Notes: generated from the letters alone by a model not told the origin. Numbered from the stretch's first letter, positions 4,932 through 16,724 are shown. The stretch: 17,337 bases of DNA from a virus (IMGVR_UViG_2778261161_000005); one strand, 5' to 3'. Made by a program: numbers and translations.

Positions 4932-5231
4932 AAAAATTCCTTAATACTGATAACTGGGCGCACTATACACACGTTCCTGAAGAAAGCTATAGTTTTTTGA
5001 TGGGGTTGAAGATGGCTGGATGTCTAAAATAAACATTGCTTCATATGTTCAACTATGCGTTAATGATTGCGTCGGTTTGAAGAACAGACGATATACGAAG
5101 TAGTTTACTAAAGCAGTTCTCATTTCAGGTGTTATTCACTTATTCCTTCTTTGAGTCTCTCCAATTAAGTACGAAGTCGTTTCTGTTATACAAGCCATTT
5201 ATGCCGAAAGGCTCAAGTTAAGGAATGTAGA

Positions 5232-5447
5232 ATGTCAAATAAAATGACTGGTTTAGTAAAATGGTTTAACGCTGATAAAGGTTTTGGCTTTATTTCTCCT
5301 GTTGATGGTAGTAAAGATGTGTTTGTGCATTTTTCTGCGATTCAGAATGATAATTTTCGAACCTTATTTGAAGGTCAAAAGGTTACCTTCTCTGTAGAGA
5401 GTGGTGCTAAAGGTCCTGCAGCAGCAAATGTCATAATTACTGATTAA
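5232..5447 (+). CDS. cspB: cold-shock protein CspB (71 aa)
   Basis: Translation [38 protein letters not shown]... carries the RNP1 (KGFGFI) and RNP2 (VFVHF) motifs; about 270 nt of upstream leader-length DNA as in cspA-family genes. Confidence 0.9.
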
Positions 5448-5728
5448 AATTCATAGTTTGTCTGTATACGATAACGAAGAAGGCTGATGCCTGAGTGGAG
5501 ATACAGACAGAGTGGTGAATATTGGATCTCTTTAATAAATAGTAAGGAGGTCCAATACATGAAACAATGGCCAGCATATTTGGCAATAACTTAATCAGGA
5601 AAAGTATGCTAACCATTGTGGTGAAGTGCAGGTTTGCTGCATGAATAGTTTTACAGCAGAAGCTAACTGCTGGCATAGCAAAACAAAGTGCGTAAGTGGA
5701 TGACTCCCACAAAAAGTACCACAATATT

Positions 5729-8320: not shown

Positions 8321-8683
8321 ATTAATATTAAATCGGATTATTTTTAGCGCTGAATGTGAAATTTAAATAAAAAGGACTCTTCCATGAGTCAAAATCCTTG
8401 AAATCTTAAGGGTAAGATAAAAGGTCATTAGACAGAATGACACGTTTTATTAATAAATAAAGCTATTGTTTCATTCGTGTGTTTTTCTTTACAAAAGTAA
8501 TCCTTGCTATGGTTGGTTAATCATGCGTTAATGGTGTTCTGGTTTGTTACAAAATTATCTGAAGCAGTCATTGTTATAATTTTATTATTTGTACCTCTTG
8601 AGATCTCCTTGTTGGTTTTTCTCTCTGATATTTTTTTTCGGACCATTCTGCCCAAGGGCTAACTTCTTCAAAAGGTAATAATG

Positions 8684-8896
8684 ATGTCTAACAAAATGAC
8701 TGGTTTAGTGAAATGGTTTAACCCTGAAAAAGGTTTTGGTTTCATCACGCCGAAAGATGGTAGCAAAGATGTGTTTGTCCATTTCTCAGTTATTCAGAGC
8801 AACGATTTCAAAACGTTAACTGAGAATCAGGAAGTCGAATTTGGTATTGAGAACGGACCTAAAGGCCCCGCGGCTGTTCATGTAGTGGCACTTTGA
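8684..8896 (+). CDS. cspI: cold-shock protein CspI (70 aa)
   Basis: Translation [45 protein letters not shown]... matches CspI as recalled; about 360 nt of upstream leader-length DNA. The track starts one codon earlier (8681). Confidence 0.9.
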
Positions 8897-9100
8897 GGTA
8901 GAAAATATTACAAACCATATTCACTTTAGATGCCCGTGTTGCCATGGTTCTCAGTATAGAACATCATCTTTTGATGTTTCTGACAGGAATCCTTTCGGGG
9001 CAAAATGTATCTTTTGTAAATCAATGATGATTACATTTGATAATATTTCACAATACTTAAATGTTAGCCGTCTGTCGTTAGATTTAAGAAAGTGAAAATG

Positions 9101-10246: not shown

Positions 10247-10589
10247 TCACCATAACTGCTAACCATTCTGACCATTTCACAAGTGACAGAGTCAATATCG
10301 TATTCTGTCACTGTCAGGCTAATACAGTACTGCAATTCAACTACAGCAATGCCTCGTATTTAGGTGAATTTACAATATCGTCCAGTTCGGATGCCGGCTG
10401 CATTTCTGAAGATAAGGCATTTCGGTTCGCGTATTTTCCCCTCATGCTCGTCAGTCCTGCGCGTAGTAAGAAACAGGACACTCACACTAATTTGTGTGGG
10501 CATGCTGTGATGTCCTTCTGAATTATCCCCACGCCATTATGTAAAGCTCTGTTTCAGATGCTCGTCACGGTTGTCAGGCTGTCGGGTCC

Positions 10590-10630
10590 TCCCTGGGGGG
10601 GGCCCTGCCACGGGGCGGGAGCGTCGCGGA
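10590..10630. other. cos-like site (putative cosN) in a GC-rich island upstream of the small terminase gene
   Basis: ACGGGGCGGGAGCGTCGCGG (10610-10629) resembles the lambda cohesive-end region (…ACGGGGCGGCGACCTCGCGG…) as recalled. It lies about 170 bp upstream of the Nu1-like gene and is followed by inverted repeats ATGTCGAA / TTCGACAT (10712-10741) in the position of cosB. Confidence 0.45.
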
Positions 10631-10798
10631 AAAAGGCTAGTTTTTGCATTTTTATCGGCCACCATCATCTTTGCATCTTATTGATTATTAATGGTTGTTT
10701 GTTTTTTGTATGTCGAATTGAGTGTTTTTTGTTCGACATCGAACGCGTTTTCTTAAAGTTGTTCGCACGATGCATGTTTAAAGCTCTCCGGAGGAAAT

Positions 10799-11290
10799 AT
10801 GGATCATGAGTTGAAAAACCTGGTGCTGAATATTAATCAACTGGCGGCTTTATCTGGTCTGCACCGCCAGACTGTCGTGGCAAGACTGAAAAACATTCGT
10901 CCCGCTGGTGGACATGACAAACTCAAGCTATACCGGTTGACCGATATTCTGACTGAATTTATGGGGTTACCACCGCCGGTTGCTGAGGGCGAAATGGATC
11001 CACATGAACGCAAAGCCTGGTATCAGTCTGAACGTGAGCGTCTTAAGTTCGAACAGGAAACGGCACAACTCATTCCGGCCAGTGATGTCAGACGGGAGTT
11101 TGCCATCTGGGCAAAAGCGGTCGTGCAGGTGCTGGAGACATTACCGGATATTCTGGAACGTGACTGCGGCCTGCAGCCTGCCGCTGTGAGCCGTGTTCAG
11201 TCCATTATTGATGATCTGCGCGATCAGATAGCCCTGCGGGTGACCGAAGCAGGTGCGGATGATGAGGAGGAATTACAGCAGGAGGAGTAA
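10799..11290 (+). CDS. terminase small subunit, Nu1-like (NohA/NohD-type), 163 aa
   Basis: N-terminal winged-HTH pattern (NINQLAALSGLHRQTVVARLKN...GG...KLYRLTDIL) like lambda Nu1; acidic C-terminus; preceded by the cos-like site; stop overlaps the next ATG. Confidence 0.65.
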   Translation: MDHELKNLVLNINQLAALSGLHRQTVVARLKNIRPAGGHDKLKLYRLTDILTEFMGLPPPVAEGEMDPHERKAWYQSERERLKFEQETAQLIPASDVRREFAIWAKAVVQVLETLPDILERDCGLQPAAVSRVQSIIDDLRDQIALRVTEAGADDEEELQQEE

Positions 11291-11790
11291 TGCTGAATCA
11301 GGAAACCGCAAAGGCAGCACGAACCGATTCAGGTTATATCCTTCGCGCACCGAGACGAATGCGGGTTGCTGATGCCGTTGCTCAGTATATGCGGGTGAAA
11401 GACCGGGTGAATAACGCGTTATGGCGTGACTCGCCAGGTCCCGGCTATGTGCATTTCCCTGACTGGCTGGGGAGCTGGTTTTACGACGAACTGACGTATG
11501 AAGAGCGGAGCAGTGACGGGAAATGGAGTAAGCCGGGTCGCGGTGCCAACGAAGCTTTTGACCTGATGGTGTATGCCGAGGCTCTGGTCATTCTGCATGG
11601 ATACGAAAAGATCCGCTGGCCGGATGCACCGGAGTGGGCGAGCCGGGAAACCTGGCTGGAGTGTGTCCCGGACAGTACCGAACCGTCACCCACACCGGAA
11701 CCGGTATCCACGCCTGTTAAAAAACAAAAACGGAAGAAAACAGTAACTGACGATGTTAACCCCTGGCTGACTTCCGGAGGATGGTTATGA
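11290..11790 (+). pseudogene. terminase large subunit remnant (gpA-like C-terminal region only, 166 codons)
   Basis: Translation aligns to the C-terminal roughly 130 aa of lambda gpA as recalled (PGYVHFP vs PGAVHFP; RGANEAFDLMVYAEAL vs RRNEALDCFVYALAAL). The ATPase and nuclease core domains expected in a roughly 640-aa protein are absent. Confidence 0.6.
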
Positions 11791-11999: not shown

Positions 12000-13507
12000 T
12001 GGCAATTCTTGATGATGTGATTGGCGTTTTTTCACCAGGATGGAAAGCGGCAAGGCTGCGTTCCCGTGCGGTGATCCAGGCTTATGAGGCCGTAAAAACG
12101 ACGCGGACACACAAAGCCCGGCGGGAAAACCGAACTGCCGACCAGTTAAGCCAGTACGGGGCCGTGTCGTTACGTGAGCAGGCCCGTTACCTTGATAACA
12201 ACCACGATCTGGTCATTGGTGTATTTGACAAGCTGGAAGAACGGGTGGTGGGGAAAAACGGGATTATTGTCGAGCCACATCCGGTATTACGCAATGGGGC
12301 CATTGCCCGTGATCTGGCAGCGGAGATACGCACCCGATGGAGTGAATGGTCTGTCAGTCCGGAAGTCACCGGGCAGTTTACCCGTCCGATGCTGGAACGT
12401 CTGATGTTGCGTACCTGGCTGCGCGATGGTGAGGTGTTTGCCCAGATGGTTTCCGGGCGCATAAACAGCCTGACGCCTTCTGCCGGTGTTCATTTCTGGC
12501 TGGAGGCGCTCGAGCCGGACTTTATTCCCATGACCAGTGATGAGAGCAACAGGCTGAATCAGGGCGTGTTTGTTGATGACTGGGGGCGTCCCGAAAAATA
12601 TCTGGTGTATAAAAGCCGTCCCGTATCCGGACGGCAGATGGAAACCAAAGAAGTGGATGCAGAGCGAATGCTGCATCTTAAATTTGTTCGCCGTCTGCAC
12701 CAGATGCGCGGGACGTCTTTGTTGTCCGGTGTGCTGATCCGCCTCAGTGCCCTGAAAGAGTATGAAGATTCTGAGCTGACTGCAGCAAGGATCGCCGCTG
12801 CTCTGGGGATGTACATCCGGAAAGGCGACGGGCAGAGCTATGAACCGGATGGTAATGGCAGCAAGGATAAGGAACGCGAGCTTACCATTCAGCCAGGCAT
12901 TATTTACGACGATCTGAAACCCGGCGAAGAAATCGGAATGGTGAAGTCGGATCGCCCCAATCCTAATCTTGAAACTTTTCGTAATGGTCAGTTGCGTGCC
13001 GTGGCGGCGGGCAGTCGTCTGAGTTTTTCCAGTACAGCGCGCAACTATAACGGCACTTACAGCGCCCAGCGTCAGGAGCTGGTTGAATCCACTGATGGCT
13101 ACCTGATCCTGCAGGACTGGTTTATTGGTGCCGTCACCCGCCCGATGTATCGTGCCTGGCTGAAACAGGCTGTGGCATCCGGTGTTATCAGGCTACCCCG
13201 CGATCTTGATCGTTCTTCACTGTATACCGCGGTGTATTCCGGACCGGTGATGCCGTGGATTGACCCTGTTAAGGAGGCTGAGGCCTGGAAAATTCAGATT
13301 CGTGGTGGAGCGGCGACAGAATCAGACTGGGTACGTGCAGGTGGTCGTAATCCGGATGATGTCAAACGTCGGCGCAAGGCCGAAATTGATGAAAACCGCA
13401 AGCTGGATCTGGTATTTGATACCGATCCGGCCAGTGATAAAGGAGGCAGCAGTGCCGCAACGAAACGACAGGAGCCGCAGCACACCGACGACCAGTCCGA
13501 AGAATAA
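11999..13507 (+). CDS. portal protein (lambda gpB family), about 502 aa
   Basis: Long ORF directly after the W-like gene, with the size and position expected for a lambda-like portal; ATG at 11999 ([11 protein letters not shown]...). The track ORF 11927..13507 is trimmed. Confidence 0.7.
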
Positions 13508-13520
13508 TTCCTGGTTCAGG

Positions 13521-15461
13521 ATGCAGGCAGGTCACCAGAGTGACGCGGATATTTATATTTATGACGAGATTGGTTTCTGGGGTGTTACGGCGAAGCAGTT
13601 TATCAGTGATCTGAATGCACTGGGCGATATCACCCACATTAAGGGACGCTTCCTGAACAACATTAACGCGGTCAGTAAAACAGACTTTGCTGATAAGCGT
13701 GGTATGCGTTATGTGCGGGTTAACGCTCCTGCAGGTGCAACATCTGGAAAATATTACCCTGTTGTTGTTATGCGTTCTGCTGGCTCAGTAAGCGAACTGG
13801 CATCAAGGGTCATTATCACCACGGCAACGCGAACCGCAGGCGATCCGATGAATAACTGCGAGTTTAACGGATTTGTTATGCCTGGTGGCTGGACTGACAG
13901 GGGGCGTTATGCTTATGGAATGTTCTGGCAATATCAAAACAATGAACGAGCCATCCACTCAATAATGATGAGTAATAAGGGCGATGATTTGCGCTCTGTG
14001 TTCTATGTTGATGGCGCTGCTTTCCCTGTTTTTGCGTTTATCGAAGATGGCCTGTCAATATCCGCACCTGGTGCTGATCTCGTTGTTAATGATACGACCT
14101 ATAAGTTTGGGGCAACAAATCCAGCGACTGAATGTATCGCGGCGGACGTTATCCTTGATTTTAAGAGTGGGCGTGGTTTTTATGAGTCTCATTCGTTAAT
14201 CGTTAACGATAACTTGTCGTGCAAAAAACTTTTTGCCACAGACGAAATTGTAGCGCGTGGTGGTAATCAGATTCGAATGATAGGTGGGGAGTATGGTGCA
14301 TTATGGCGTAATGATGGCGCTAAAACTTACCTGCTGCTTACCAATCAAGGTGATGTTTATGGTGGCTGGAATACATTAAGACCGTTTGCTATTGATAACG
14401 CAACCGGCGAGCTGGTTATTGGAACCAAACTGTCCGCAAGTCTGAACGGTAATGCATTAACAGCAACAAAGCTGCAAACGCCAAGACGGGTTTCTGGTGT
14501 TGAGTTTGATGGTTCCAAAGATATTACTTTAACCGCCGCGCATGTGGCTGCTTTTGCCAGAAGAGCAACGGATACGTATGCCGATGCGGATGGGGGCGTT
14601 CCATGGAATGCCGAATCAGGCGCTTACAATGTCACCCGCTCTGGCGACAGCTATATTCTGGTTAACTTCTATACCGGAGTCGGAAGTTGCCGGACCCTGC
14701 AGATGAAGGCGCATTACAGAAATGGAGGTCTGTTCTACCGTTCCTCAAGAGATGGCTATGGTTTTGAGGAAGACTGGGCAGAAGTTTATACCTCGAAAAA
14801 TCTTCCACCAGAAAGCTACCCAGTCGGCGCACCAATCCCGTGGCCATCAGATACCGTTCCGTCTGGTTATGCCCTGATGCAGGGGCAGACTTTTGACAAA
14901 TCTGCATACCCGAAACTTGCAGCCGCTTATCCGTCAGGCGTGATCCCTGATATGCGTAGCTGGACGATTAAGGGCAAACCTGCCAGTGGTCGGGCCGTAT
15001 TGTCTCAGGAACAGGACGGCATTAAATCGCACACCCACAGCGCCAGCGCATCCAGTACGGATTTGGGGACGAAAACCACATCGTCGTTTGATTACGGCAC
15101 TAAATCCACGAATAACACCGGGGCGCATACGCACAGTGTGAGCGGTACAGCCGCAAGTGCCGGAAACCATACTCATAGTGTCACAGGCGCATCAGCAGTC
15201 AGCCAGTGGTCACAAAATGGGTCAGTACATAAGGTAGTGTCTGCGGCCAGTGTGAATACAAGTGCTGCAGGAGCGCACACTCATAGTGTTAGCGGCACAG
15301 CCGCATCTGCAGGTGCTCACGCACATACTGTCGGTATTGGTGCTCATACGCACTCTGTTGCGATTGGCTCACATGGACACACTATCACCGTTAACGCTGC
15401 TGGTAACGCGGAAAACACCGTCAAAAACATCGCATTTAACTACATTGTGAGGCTTGCATAA
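13521..15461 (+). CDS. chimeric ORF: ClpP-type prohead protease N-terminus (about 37 aa) fused in frame to a side tail fibre protein (Stf-like)
   Basis: First ATG after the portal stop; the N-terminus [28 protein letters not shown] matches the start of ClpP-family prohead proteases, then the sequence switches to tail-fibre-like repeats and ends with a tail-collar region ([42 protein letters not shown]), His-rich HxH repeats and [11 protein letters not shown]. The track ORF 13260..15461 overlaps the portal in another frame. Confidence 0.65.
15121..15313 (+). repeat. imperfect direct repeats of about 43 bp within the stf 3' region
   Basis: GGGCGCATACGCACAGTGTGAGCGGTACAGCCGCAAGTGCCGG (15121-15163) and GGAGCGCACACTCATAGTGTTAGCGGCACAGCCGCATCTGCAGG (15270-15313), both encoding [15 protein letters not shown]. 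Confidence 0.7.
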
Positions 15462-16036
15462 TGGCATTCAGAATGAGTGAACAACCACGGACCATAAAAA
15501 TTTATAATCTGCTGGCCGGAACTAATGAATTTATTGGTGAAGGTGACGCATATATTCCGCCTCATACAGGTCTGCCAGCAAACAGTACCGATATTGCACC
15601 GCCAGATATTCCGGCAGGCTTCGTGGCTGTTTTCAACAGTGATGAGGCATCGTGGCATCTCGTTGAAGACCATCGGGGTAAAACGGTTTATGACGTAGCG
15701 TCAGGGGACGCGTTATTTATTTCTGAACTCGGTCCGTTACCGGAAAATGTTACCTGGTTATCGCCGGAAGGGGAGTTTCAGAAGTGGAACGGCACAGCCT
15801 GGGTGAAAGATGCAGAAGCAGAAAAACTGTTCCGGATCCGGGAGGCGGAAGAAACAAAAAACAGCCTGATGCAGGTAGCCAGTGAGCATATTGCGCCGCT
15901 TCAGGATGCTGCAGATCTGGAAATTGCAACGGAGGAAGAAATCTCGTTGCTGGAAGCATGGAAAAAGTATCGGGTATTGCTGAACCGTGTTGATACGTCA
16001 ACTGCACAGGATATTGAATGGCCAGCACTGCCGTAG
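15461..16036 (+). CDS. tail fibre assembly protein (Tfa), 191 aa
   Basis: Translation [39 protein letters not shown]... matches TfaQ/TfaR-type proteins as recalled; start overlaps the stf stop (TAATG). Confidence 0.85.
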
Positions 16037-16133: not shown

Positions 16134-16724
16134 TTATATGTCAGGTGTCTGAAGTTTTGCTTTGGCTCTTAAAATGGTTTGCCGCGAGGTTTTGAATTCC
16201 CGGGCAATGGCACTTATACTTACACCTGACTTAATCCGTTCGAATACCACCTGTTTCTGTTCTTCATTTAACACAGGTGGTCGACCAAAACGTTTCCCTG
16301 CGCCCCGGGCTCTTACTATCCCGGAATGAGTGCGTTCAAGTAAAAGGTCTCGTTCAAATTCAGCGACTGCTGAAATTACTTGCATCATCATTTTTCCTGT
16401 TGGACTGGTCAGGTCAATGCCCCCCAATGCTAAGCAATGCACTCTGATACCTGTTTCGGTCAGTTGTTCCACTGTTTTCCTGATATCCATTGCATTACAA
16501 CCAAGGCGATCCAGTTTTGTCACAATCAATTGATCACCACATTTCAGGCGAGCAAGCAACCGGTTAAAACCAGGACGCTCACTGGTTGCTGCTGAGCCGC
16601 TAATGTGTTCTTCGATTATTTGCTGAGGTTTGATTTTAAAACCTGCACTTTCGATTTCCCGGCGTTGATTTTCGGTGGTCTGATCCAGCGTTGATATCCG
16701 ACAGTAAGCAAAAATTCGAGACAT
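16134..16724 (-). CDS. serine recombinase (resolvase/DNA-invertase family), 196 aa
   Basis: N-terminal catalytic motif [10 protein letters not shown] with the serine nucleophile, and a C-terminal HTH; sits in the position of pin in Rac/Qin-type prophages but is not close to canonical Pin/Gin/Hin by eye. Confidence 0.8.

Follow-up and report, generated by a model that had tools for sequence, protein, structure and literature searches.

A lambda-type cos site with a predicted array of small-terminase sites in a defective Escherichia coli prophage

A complete cos site ahead of the terminase genes

The 17,337-nt viral stretch IMGVR_UViG_2778261161_000005 (the window, by which we mean this whole stretch at its full length) carries a complete lambda-type cos at 10584–10795, made up of the three subsites cosQ, cosN and cosB and lying directly 5′ of the genes for a small terminase subunit (TerS) and a gpA-type large terminase subunit (TerL). 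A sequence-only reading of this DNA had described a cosN-like sequence followed by inverted repeats, set in a GC-rich island upstream of an intact Nu1-like gene, in a defective prophage that might be mobilized by a helper phage in the manner of a satellite. The island is real, with 72% GC at 10560–10634 against 45% for the whole window and 23–38% in the DNA that follows (10660–10760). It reads ...ctgtcGGGTCCTccctggggggggccctgccACG-GGGCGGGAGCGT-CGCGGaaaaagg..., which can be set in direct register against the lambda junction built from both ends of NC_001416, ...acGGGTCCTttccggtgatccgacaggttACG-GGGCGGCGACCT-CGCGGgttttcg....

The leftmost subsite, cosQ, is the heptamer GGGTCCT (10584–10590, + strand), which matches bp 48473–48479 of lambda at 7/7 positions; in lambda this is the signal that terminates packaging. 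It is 22 nt from the predicted nick, compared with 23 nt in lambda, and had been missed by the sequence-only reading, whose cos-like region started at 10590, just inside it. Of 65 distinct upstream sequences from relatives, 62 retain the heptamer amid variable flanks; one reads GGCTCCT and two are without the cos region. cosN (10611–10626, + strand) consists of a 12-nt cohesive end, GGGCGGGAGCGT (10613–10624), and the CG dinucleotides on either side of it. Specifically, 10610–10629 reads ACG-GGGCGGGAGCGT-CGCGG where lambda reads ACG-GGGCGGCGACCT-CGCGG, so that nine bases (ACGGGGCGG) to the left of the variable part and five (CGCGG) to its right are identical to lambda. The cosN resemblance noticed earlier is thereby borne out: the two cohesive ends agree at 8/12 positions overall and 6/6 in the left half, with mismatches at bp 7, 8, 9 and 11, and the CG dinucleotides at both nick flanks (aCG-GGGCGGGAGCGT-CGcgg) are conserved in relatives as well. 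By homology with lambda, the nicks are predicted between 10612 and 10613 on the top strand and opposite the step from 10624 to 10625 on the bottom strand; the 12-nt length of the putative overhang and its 5′ polarity are likewise taken from lambda.

Lambda-like phages, Gifsy-1 included, have been defined by a cohesive end of this kind (Feiss et al., PMC4669245). Natural and engineered changes at bp 7–12 are tolerated, and cosQ and the flanking CG dinucleotides are conserved across the group (PMC4669245). All four cosN differences lie within the tolerated bp 7–12, and the site thus fits the lambda-like pattern of variation. The same division is seen among 198 related loci with a recognizable cosN, in which the left half, GGGCGG, is invariant and bp 7–12 vary, the right half taking the forms GAGCGT, CGCGCT, CAGCGG, CGTGCT, CTGGCT and others.

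Because the site has four mismatches, a search of the window with the lambda 20-mer, allowing up to three, returned no match; blastn at a distant setting likewise did not retrieve lambda, and the homology was shown through direct register alignment and a degenerate pattern. The proposed similarity to a known cos therefore holds in register (cosQ 7/7, cosN 8/12) and not in a blastn search. These two failed searches are what could be said for a chance resemblance, that is, a GC-rich patch resembling cosN by accident and without packaging function in this phage family. Against this, the pattern cosQ-N(18–24)-ACGGGGCGGNNNCNTCGCGG matches once in the window and in 0/200 shuffles, the site is strictly conserved over hundreds of loci amid variable flanks, it stands directly 5′ of TerS and gpA-type TerL genes, and deposited phage genomes end at the exact base (see below). 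Shuffles, conservation, gene context and phage ends effectively refute the chance reading, to which we assign almost no probability. A literature search with the exact cohesive-end 12-mer found nothing relevant.

Two spacers separate the subsites. The I2-like spacer between cosN and cosB, which begins CGCGGAAAAAGGCTAGTTTTTG (10625–10659, + strand), is highly conserved among relatives. The cosQ–cosN spacer is variable and contains a run of eight G residues at 10595–10602 (+ strand), previously given as a run of seven at 10598–10604. Relatives carry GGTGGGGTGG, AGTGGGGGTC or other variants at this position, so the run is not a conserved feature, and it is also found in the intact prophage of E. 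coli GPEC1222. An 83-residue open reading frame (10558–10809, + strand) spans cosN and cosB; its equivalent in phage PhiR40_1 is annotated as a hypothetical protein, and it is probably a spurious gene call over the DNA site.

Layout of cosB and the inverted repeat

We compared cosB across 122 distinct related sequences, aligned by distance from the nick and not from the start codon. Reading rightwards from the nick, the first element is a candidate R3-like TerS site, CACCATCATC (10660–10669, + strand; +48 to +57 from the nick), at nearly the distance of lambda R3 (+50–65). Among the 122 sequences, the motif CA[TC]CA[TC]C is present on the + strand at +40–49 in 120, on the − strand at +90–99 in 15 and on the + strand at +120–129 in 64. 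Next comes an I1-like match to the IHF consensus, AATCAATAAGATG (10674–10686, − strand), which differs from WATCAANNNNTTR by one mismatch. IHF-consensus matches with at most one mismatch in the cosB of relatives lie at +60–69 on the − strand in 93/95, and the match is perfect in 32 of the 48 sequences belonging to the window's own length class.

The inverted repeat stands where the sequence-only reading had placed it, at the position of cosB. Its left arm, ATGTCGAA (10710–10717, − strand; +98 to +105), takes the place of R2 and its right arm, TTCGACAT (10732–10739, + strand; +120 to +127), that of R1, the two forming a perfect 8-bp inverted repeat with a 14-nt spacer. Further right, a conserved block, TTAAAGTTGTTCGCACGATGCATGTTTAAAG (10753–10783, + strand), includes an additional R-like copy, TTCGCACG (10762–10769; +150 to +157). 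This block is near-invariant between the groups whose TerS is 100% and 87% identical to that of the window, and is absent where the distance from cos to the ATG is 129 nt.

The repeat gains its weight from comparison with relatives only. In four clades, the window's own and at least three further TerS clades, the inverted pair keeps a fixed register, with the left arm at +92–98 and the right arm at +118–121, and this register is unchanged while the ATG ranges from 129 to 186 nt from the nick. The arms co-vary between clades: the window's ATGTCGAA/TTCGACAT is replaced by AGTGTCGAA/TTCGACACT in Gifsy-2, by AAGATGATG/CATCATCTT in Fels-1 and by GATGATGAA/TTCGTCATC in the L147 clade. The Fels-1 type has the same CATCATC motif at all three positions, and the general half-site can be written TTC-R-N-CA-Y-C. 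Murialdo and Feiss (PMC9026076) give the order R3-I1-R2(inverted)-R1 for lambda, in which R3 lies at bp 50–65, and likewise for phi80, 21 and Gifsy-1. At the level of sequence and comparison, the window has this complex type of cosB, with R2 inverted and the IHF site between R3 and R2. It differs from lambda in that R2 and R1 are closer (+98/+120 here, about +109/+151 in lambda) and in that the R sites are unrelated in sequence (TTC-R-N-CA-Y-C or CATCATC here, CGTTTCCTTTCT in lambda). Given the fixed register and the lambda-type order, we infer that the inverted repeat is the R2/R1 pair of a predicted array of small-terminase sites.

A different function for the repeat would be at the RNA level, as a hairpin in late mRNA that terminates or attenuates transcription before the terminase genes. 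A terminator scan does flag TGTTCGACATCGAACG followed by CGTTTTCTTA at 10730–10745, a hairpin built on the right arm, but one site against 0.6 expected in shuffles is no enrichment, and no Rfam family matches at the site. What is conserved across clades is the position of the half-sites and their motif relative to the nick, and not the potential for base pairing. The sister clade reads GTTCATCACTAACACCG and has lost the flagged stem; for this want of conservation we rejected the hairpin reading, which we regard as very improbable.

Phages cdtI and Tritos have cosQ, cosN and I2 in common with the window to about +33 (cdtI 13–45 against window 10625–10660), after which they continue into an unrelated cosB. 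This arrangement points to recombination with its joint between I2 and R3, which would have swapped packaging specificity and kept the cohesive ends. The TerS encoded beyond this point in cdtI and Tritos is of the DUF1441 family and only 42% identical to that of the window. Within TerS, a helix reading HRQT is invariant in phages that have the cosB motif, and cdtI, without the motif, has HRDT, which fits a specificity module composed of cosB and the TerS N-terminus. Together these comparisons point to TTC-R-N-CA-Y-C or CATCATC, laid out as R3-IHF-R2-R1, as a candidate recognition motif for DUF1441 small terminases.

In the clade with 129 nt between cos and the ATG (mEp043, Kp4865-4 and Chris1), the R1-like half-site, TTCACCATC or TTCATCATC (about +118 to +132), overlaps the TerS start codon. 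TerS bound at such a half-site could regulate its own translation or transcription.

The small terminase

The TerS gene (10799–11290, + strand) is intact and encodes 163 amino acids of the DUF1441 family (Pfam PF07278, E 4.6e-44). Its ATG is at +187 from the nick, close to the +191 of lambda, and the TerL gene, which is of full length in relatives and internally deleted here, follows directly 3′. The protein is 100% identical to those of the isolated phages PhiR40_1, PhiR47_1, PhiR55_1 and vB_EcoS-606R10, and 42–87% identical to those of mEp460, mEp043, VT1-Sakai, Stx2 phages, Gifsy-2, Fels-1 and cdtI.

The description of this gene as intact and Nu1-like was right on the first count and partly so on the second. 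BLASTP of TerS against lambda Nu1 gave no alignment at E ≤ 100, and Pfam reported DUF1441 only, with a sub-threshold match to HTH_30. Comparison of a 10-sequence TerS profile with Nu1 by hhalign gave an alignment that was colinear over the whole length but had a probability of only 6.6%, and a PDB sequence search with TerS returned no match. In an AlphaFold model with a pLDDT of 79, the N-terminus is predicted to fold as beta-alpha-alpha-beta-beta-alpha, corresponding to a winged helix-turn-helix, followed by long helices. TerS is thus Nu1-like by position and role, perhaps by fold, and not by sequence, and sequence homology does not place it in the Nu1 family. A literature search for DUF1441 gave three phage genome papers that mention it in passing.

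Deposited phage ends and distribution of the site

Deposited phage genomes also bear on the nick. The cdtI record has as its first base the equivalent of window position 10613, and the Tritos record, which is linear, has the equivalent of 10613 at its start and that of 10612 at its end. The ends of both records thus agree with the top-strand nick predicted from lambda.

The site is also widespread. The 901 bp around cos are present in 2,187 of 5,426 complete E. coli genomes, at up to 7 copies per genome, and the genes 3′ of cos in these genomes are annotated as 'DUF1441 family protein' and 'phage terminase large subunit'. For a prophage family that about 40% of complete E. coli genomes carry, the subsites of cos and its probable nick position are now placed, which may be of use in orienting prophage and phage assemblies and in predicting which lambdoid phages package each other's DNA. 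The importance beyond annotation is small.

A prophage with three deletions

As reported earlier, the prophage is defective, and its own cos cannot be cut by its own enzymes. With the intact prophage of E. coli GPEC1222, located between yjjG and prfC, as the reference, the window resolves into four blocks of 99.9–100% identity separated by three deletions, and 13.6 kb of the window is identical to intact prophages at this level. The first deletion removes 5.4 kb of the early region, from the end of a cro-like gene into a DUF968 gene, a segment that probably holds replication functions. The second removes 1602 bp (534 codons) in frame within TerL, with its junction at 11396/11397. The third removes about 16 kb, from codon ~63 of a fused prohead protease/capsid gene into a tail-fibre gene, across 17 bp of microhomology. 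The TerL core, the early region and the head and tail genes would thus have been lost recently through three microhomology deletions. A chimeric open reading frame at 13452–15461, with its junction at 13626–13642, begins with ~63 codons from the start of the ClpP-like prohead protease/major capsid fusion gene and continues with the C-terminal domains of the tail fibre (Gp34_trimer, Collar and gp37_C).

The TerL remnant (11290–11790, + strand; gpA family) is 166 amino acids long and consists of residues 1–36 joined to the last ~130 residues. It has neither the ATPase domain nor most of the nuclease domain, and Pfam finds only the GpA_nuclease tail. The two ends of lambda gpA bind TerS and the portal, respectively. 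By analogy, the remnant may keep both binding ends and could act as a dominant-negative packaging protein.

Neither the TerL nor the head-tail junction was found in any of 5,426 complete E. coli genomes, and GTDB species representatives also lack the TerL one. For the early-region junction there are only two imperfect look-alikes, one 94% identical and one in two pieces, and not one complete E. coli genome accounts for 80% or more of the window.

Was the cos site retained for mobilization?

The sequence-only reading had taken cos and TerS to be retained, which raises the question of whether the deleted prophage keeps them because it is mobilized by a helper with this type of cos, resident in the same cell or arriving by superinfection, that supplies TerL, capsids and tails. 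The gene content would suit such an element, in that cos and TerS are intact and the TerL, capsid and tail genes are lost, and compatible helpers are plausible, since the cos-TerS region recurs in many relatives, at the up to 7 copies per genome given above. Packaging of a passive prophage by a helper is an established laboratory phenomenon (PMC4669245), and phage-inducible chromosomal islands (PICIs) found in Gram-negative bacteria use lambda-like cos packaging (PMC9026076).

The evidence from the locus itself points the other way. The cos-TerS stretch is 100% identical, base for base, to intact prophages of other strains, which leaves no time for selection, so its apparent retention reflects recent deletions and not selection. 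With its TerL and head-tail junctions missing from all 5,426 genomes, the element shows no spread. The early region, the probable site of the replication functions, is gone; none of the nine open reading frames scanned encodes a packaging-redirection protein (Rpp) or a capsid-remodelling protein; and there is a single cos within the window. The integrase end of the element lies outside the window, but if the flanks are as in GPEC1222 the remaining element measures about 23–24 kb, roughly half a genome. By lambda rules, this is too short for a packaged monomer. We therefore consider a satellite-like element very unlikely.

In the laboratory example, from the Feiss laboratory, the passive prophage was packaged by a helper in a dilysogen with two tandem cos sites (PMC4669245). 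Initiation requires matching cosB/TerS specificity and termination does not (PMC4669245). By analogy, a helper whose cosB and TerS are of this type could probably nick the cos described here and package rightwards into the remnant and then into host DNA near prfC; with no downstream cos, mature transducing particles would not be expected. That a helper would cut here is general lambda biology and is not shown by the locus itself.

A further form of the idea starts from what is left in the prophage: repressor, Q and lysis genes, cos, TerS, portal and tail-fibre genes and an in-frame mini-TerL. The triple-deleted prophage might be an incipient helper-dependent element and not mere debris. When a related phage superinfects, the mini-TerL could disturb or bridge its packaging machinery, and cos would let that phage's terminase cut and package the locus and adjacent host DNA. 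We hold this to be highly unlikely.

Discussion

Sequence identity, conservation, positional register and the ends of deposited phages all argue that 10584–10795 is, with high probability, the normal cos of a Gifsy/Fels-1/mEp460-type lambdoid prophage, a type that combines a DUF1441 TerS with a gpA-family TerL, and that in this copy it is an idle leftover. The cos is genuine but ordinary: the prophage family is known and abundant, no new mechanism is revealed, and the only modestly new output is the candidate motif for DUF1441 TerS with its layout.

Several observations weigh against this interpretation. By itself, the 8-bp inverted repeat is not significant: a repeat of this kind arises in 8.5% of dinucleotide shuffles (p ~0.08) of the 174-bp stretch from cosN to the ATG, and the window-wide rate of such repeats is 0.23 per 174 bp. 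The window's own IHF match carries one mismatch and does not stand out from background (32 matches against 24 expected). In the closest sister clade, that of mEp460 and phi458, whose TerS is 87% identical, the two arms agree at only 5/8 positions, which also indicates that perfect symmetry is not required. Within the window, the R3-like CACCATCATC has no more than the core C-R-W-CATC in common with the R2/R1 sites (TCGACAT). The modelled N-terminal fold of TerS appears linked only weakly to winged helices of the MerR/Nu1 type, and the termini of the deposited phage records may themselves have been placed by lambda homology.

Taking the cos as that of a lambdoid prophage of this type, its working in an intact relative can be proposed with protein binding, the exact nicks and the direction of packaging modelled on lambda. 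The predicted winged helix-turn-helix of TerS would bind the cosB half-sites, R3-like (10660–10669), inverted R2-like (10710–10717) and R1-like (10732–10739), with the DNA bent by IHF at 10674–10686. TerL would thereby be placed on cosN, where it would make staggered nicks, between 10612 and 10613 on top and opposite the step from 10624 to 10625 on the bottom, leaving the putative 12-nt 5′ overhang GGGCGGGAGCGT. Packaging would proceed rightwards, with the terminase genes entering first, and cosQ (10584–10590) would act when packaging stops at the next cos.

The closest parallels are Gifsy-1, Fels-1, Gifsy-2, cdtI, Tritos and the mEp460/mEp043 group, which are like the window in having a DUF1441 TerS, a gpA-type TerL and the same cosB register. 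They are unlike it in that half-site sequences differ from clade to clade and in that the window copy has no functional TerL. Gifsy-1, a lambda-like cos phage, differs from lambda at bp 8, 9 and 11 (PMC4669245), and the cohesive end of the window differs at bp 7 besides. cdtI and Tritos have a cohesive end identical to the window's and records that start at the same base, but have only cosQ-cosN-I2 in common with it, together with another cosB and the more distant TerS. Lambda itself has the identical cosQ, a cohesive end of the same length and the same succession of an R3-like site, an IHF site, an inverted R-like and a direct R-like site, but its TerS, Nu1, has no detectable sequence similarity to that of the window.

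Among remnants, the E. coli K-12 cryptic prophages DLP12 (nohD) and Qin (nohA) also carry a cos and a Nu1 homologue. They too are defective lambdoid prophages with cos and a small-terminase gene by the lysis genes, but they are old, degraded and fixed and have a Nu1-type TerS, in contrast to the DUF1441 TerS and the very recent deletions of the window, whose sequence is 100% identical to intact copies. In the annotation of relatives, the lysis and cold-shock gene block of the window carries Qin gene names.

Cos-type PICIs such as EcCICFT073 have a lambda-like cosN and depend on the TerS and TerL of a helper (PMC9026076). They are distinct, recurrent elements, conserved and widespread, with their own integrase, regulation and replication modules and a gene for exploiting the helper, Rpp, which redirects the helper TerS to a distinct island cosB. 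The element in the window is by contrast a one-off deletion derivative of a full prophage and has the phage's own cosB and TerS.

Other features of the window

Elsewhere in the window, Rfam finds two cspA thermoregulator 5′ untranslated regions, at 5071–5510 (157 bits) and 8537–8942 (117 bits), each 5′ of a prophage-borne cold-shock gene; the annotation of relatives names these genes cspB and cspI. Within the tail-fibre assembly gene at 15461–16036 lies a full-length match to Rfam IS009 (15804–16002, 221 bits). A Pin/Hin-type serine invertase gene (16134–16724, − strand; Resolvase and HTH_7 domains) adjoins the tail-fibre and tail-fibre assembly genes, which suggests an invertible host-range segment at the tail-fibre genes.
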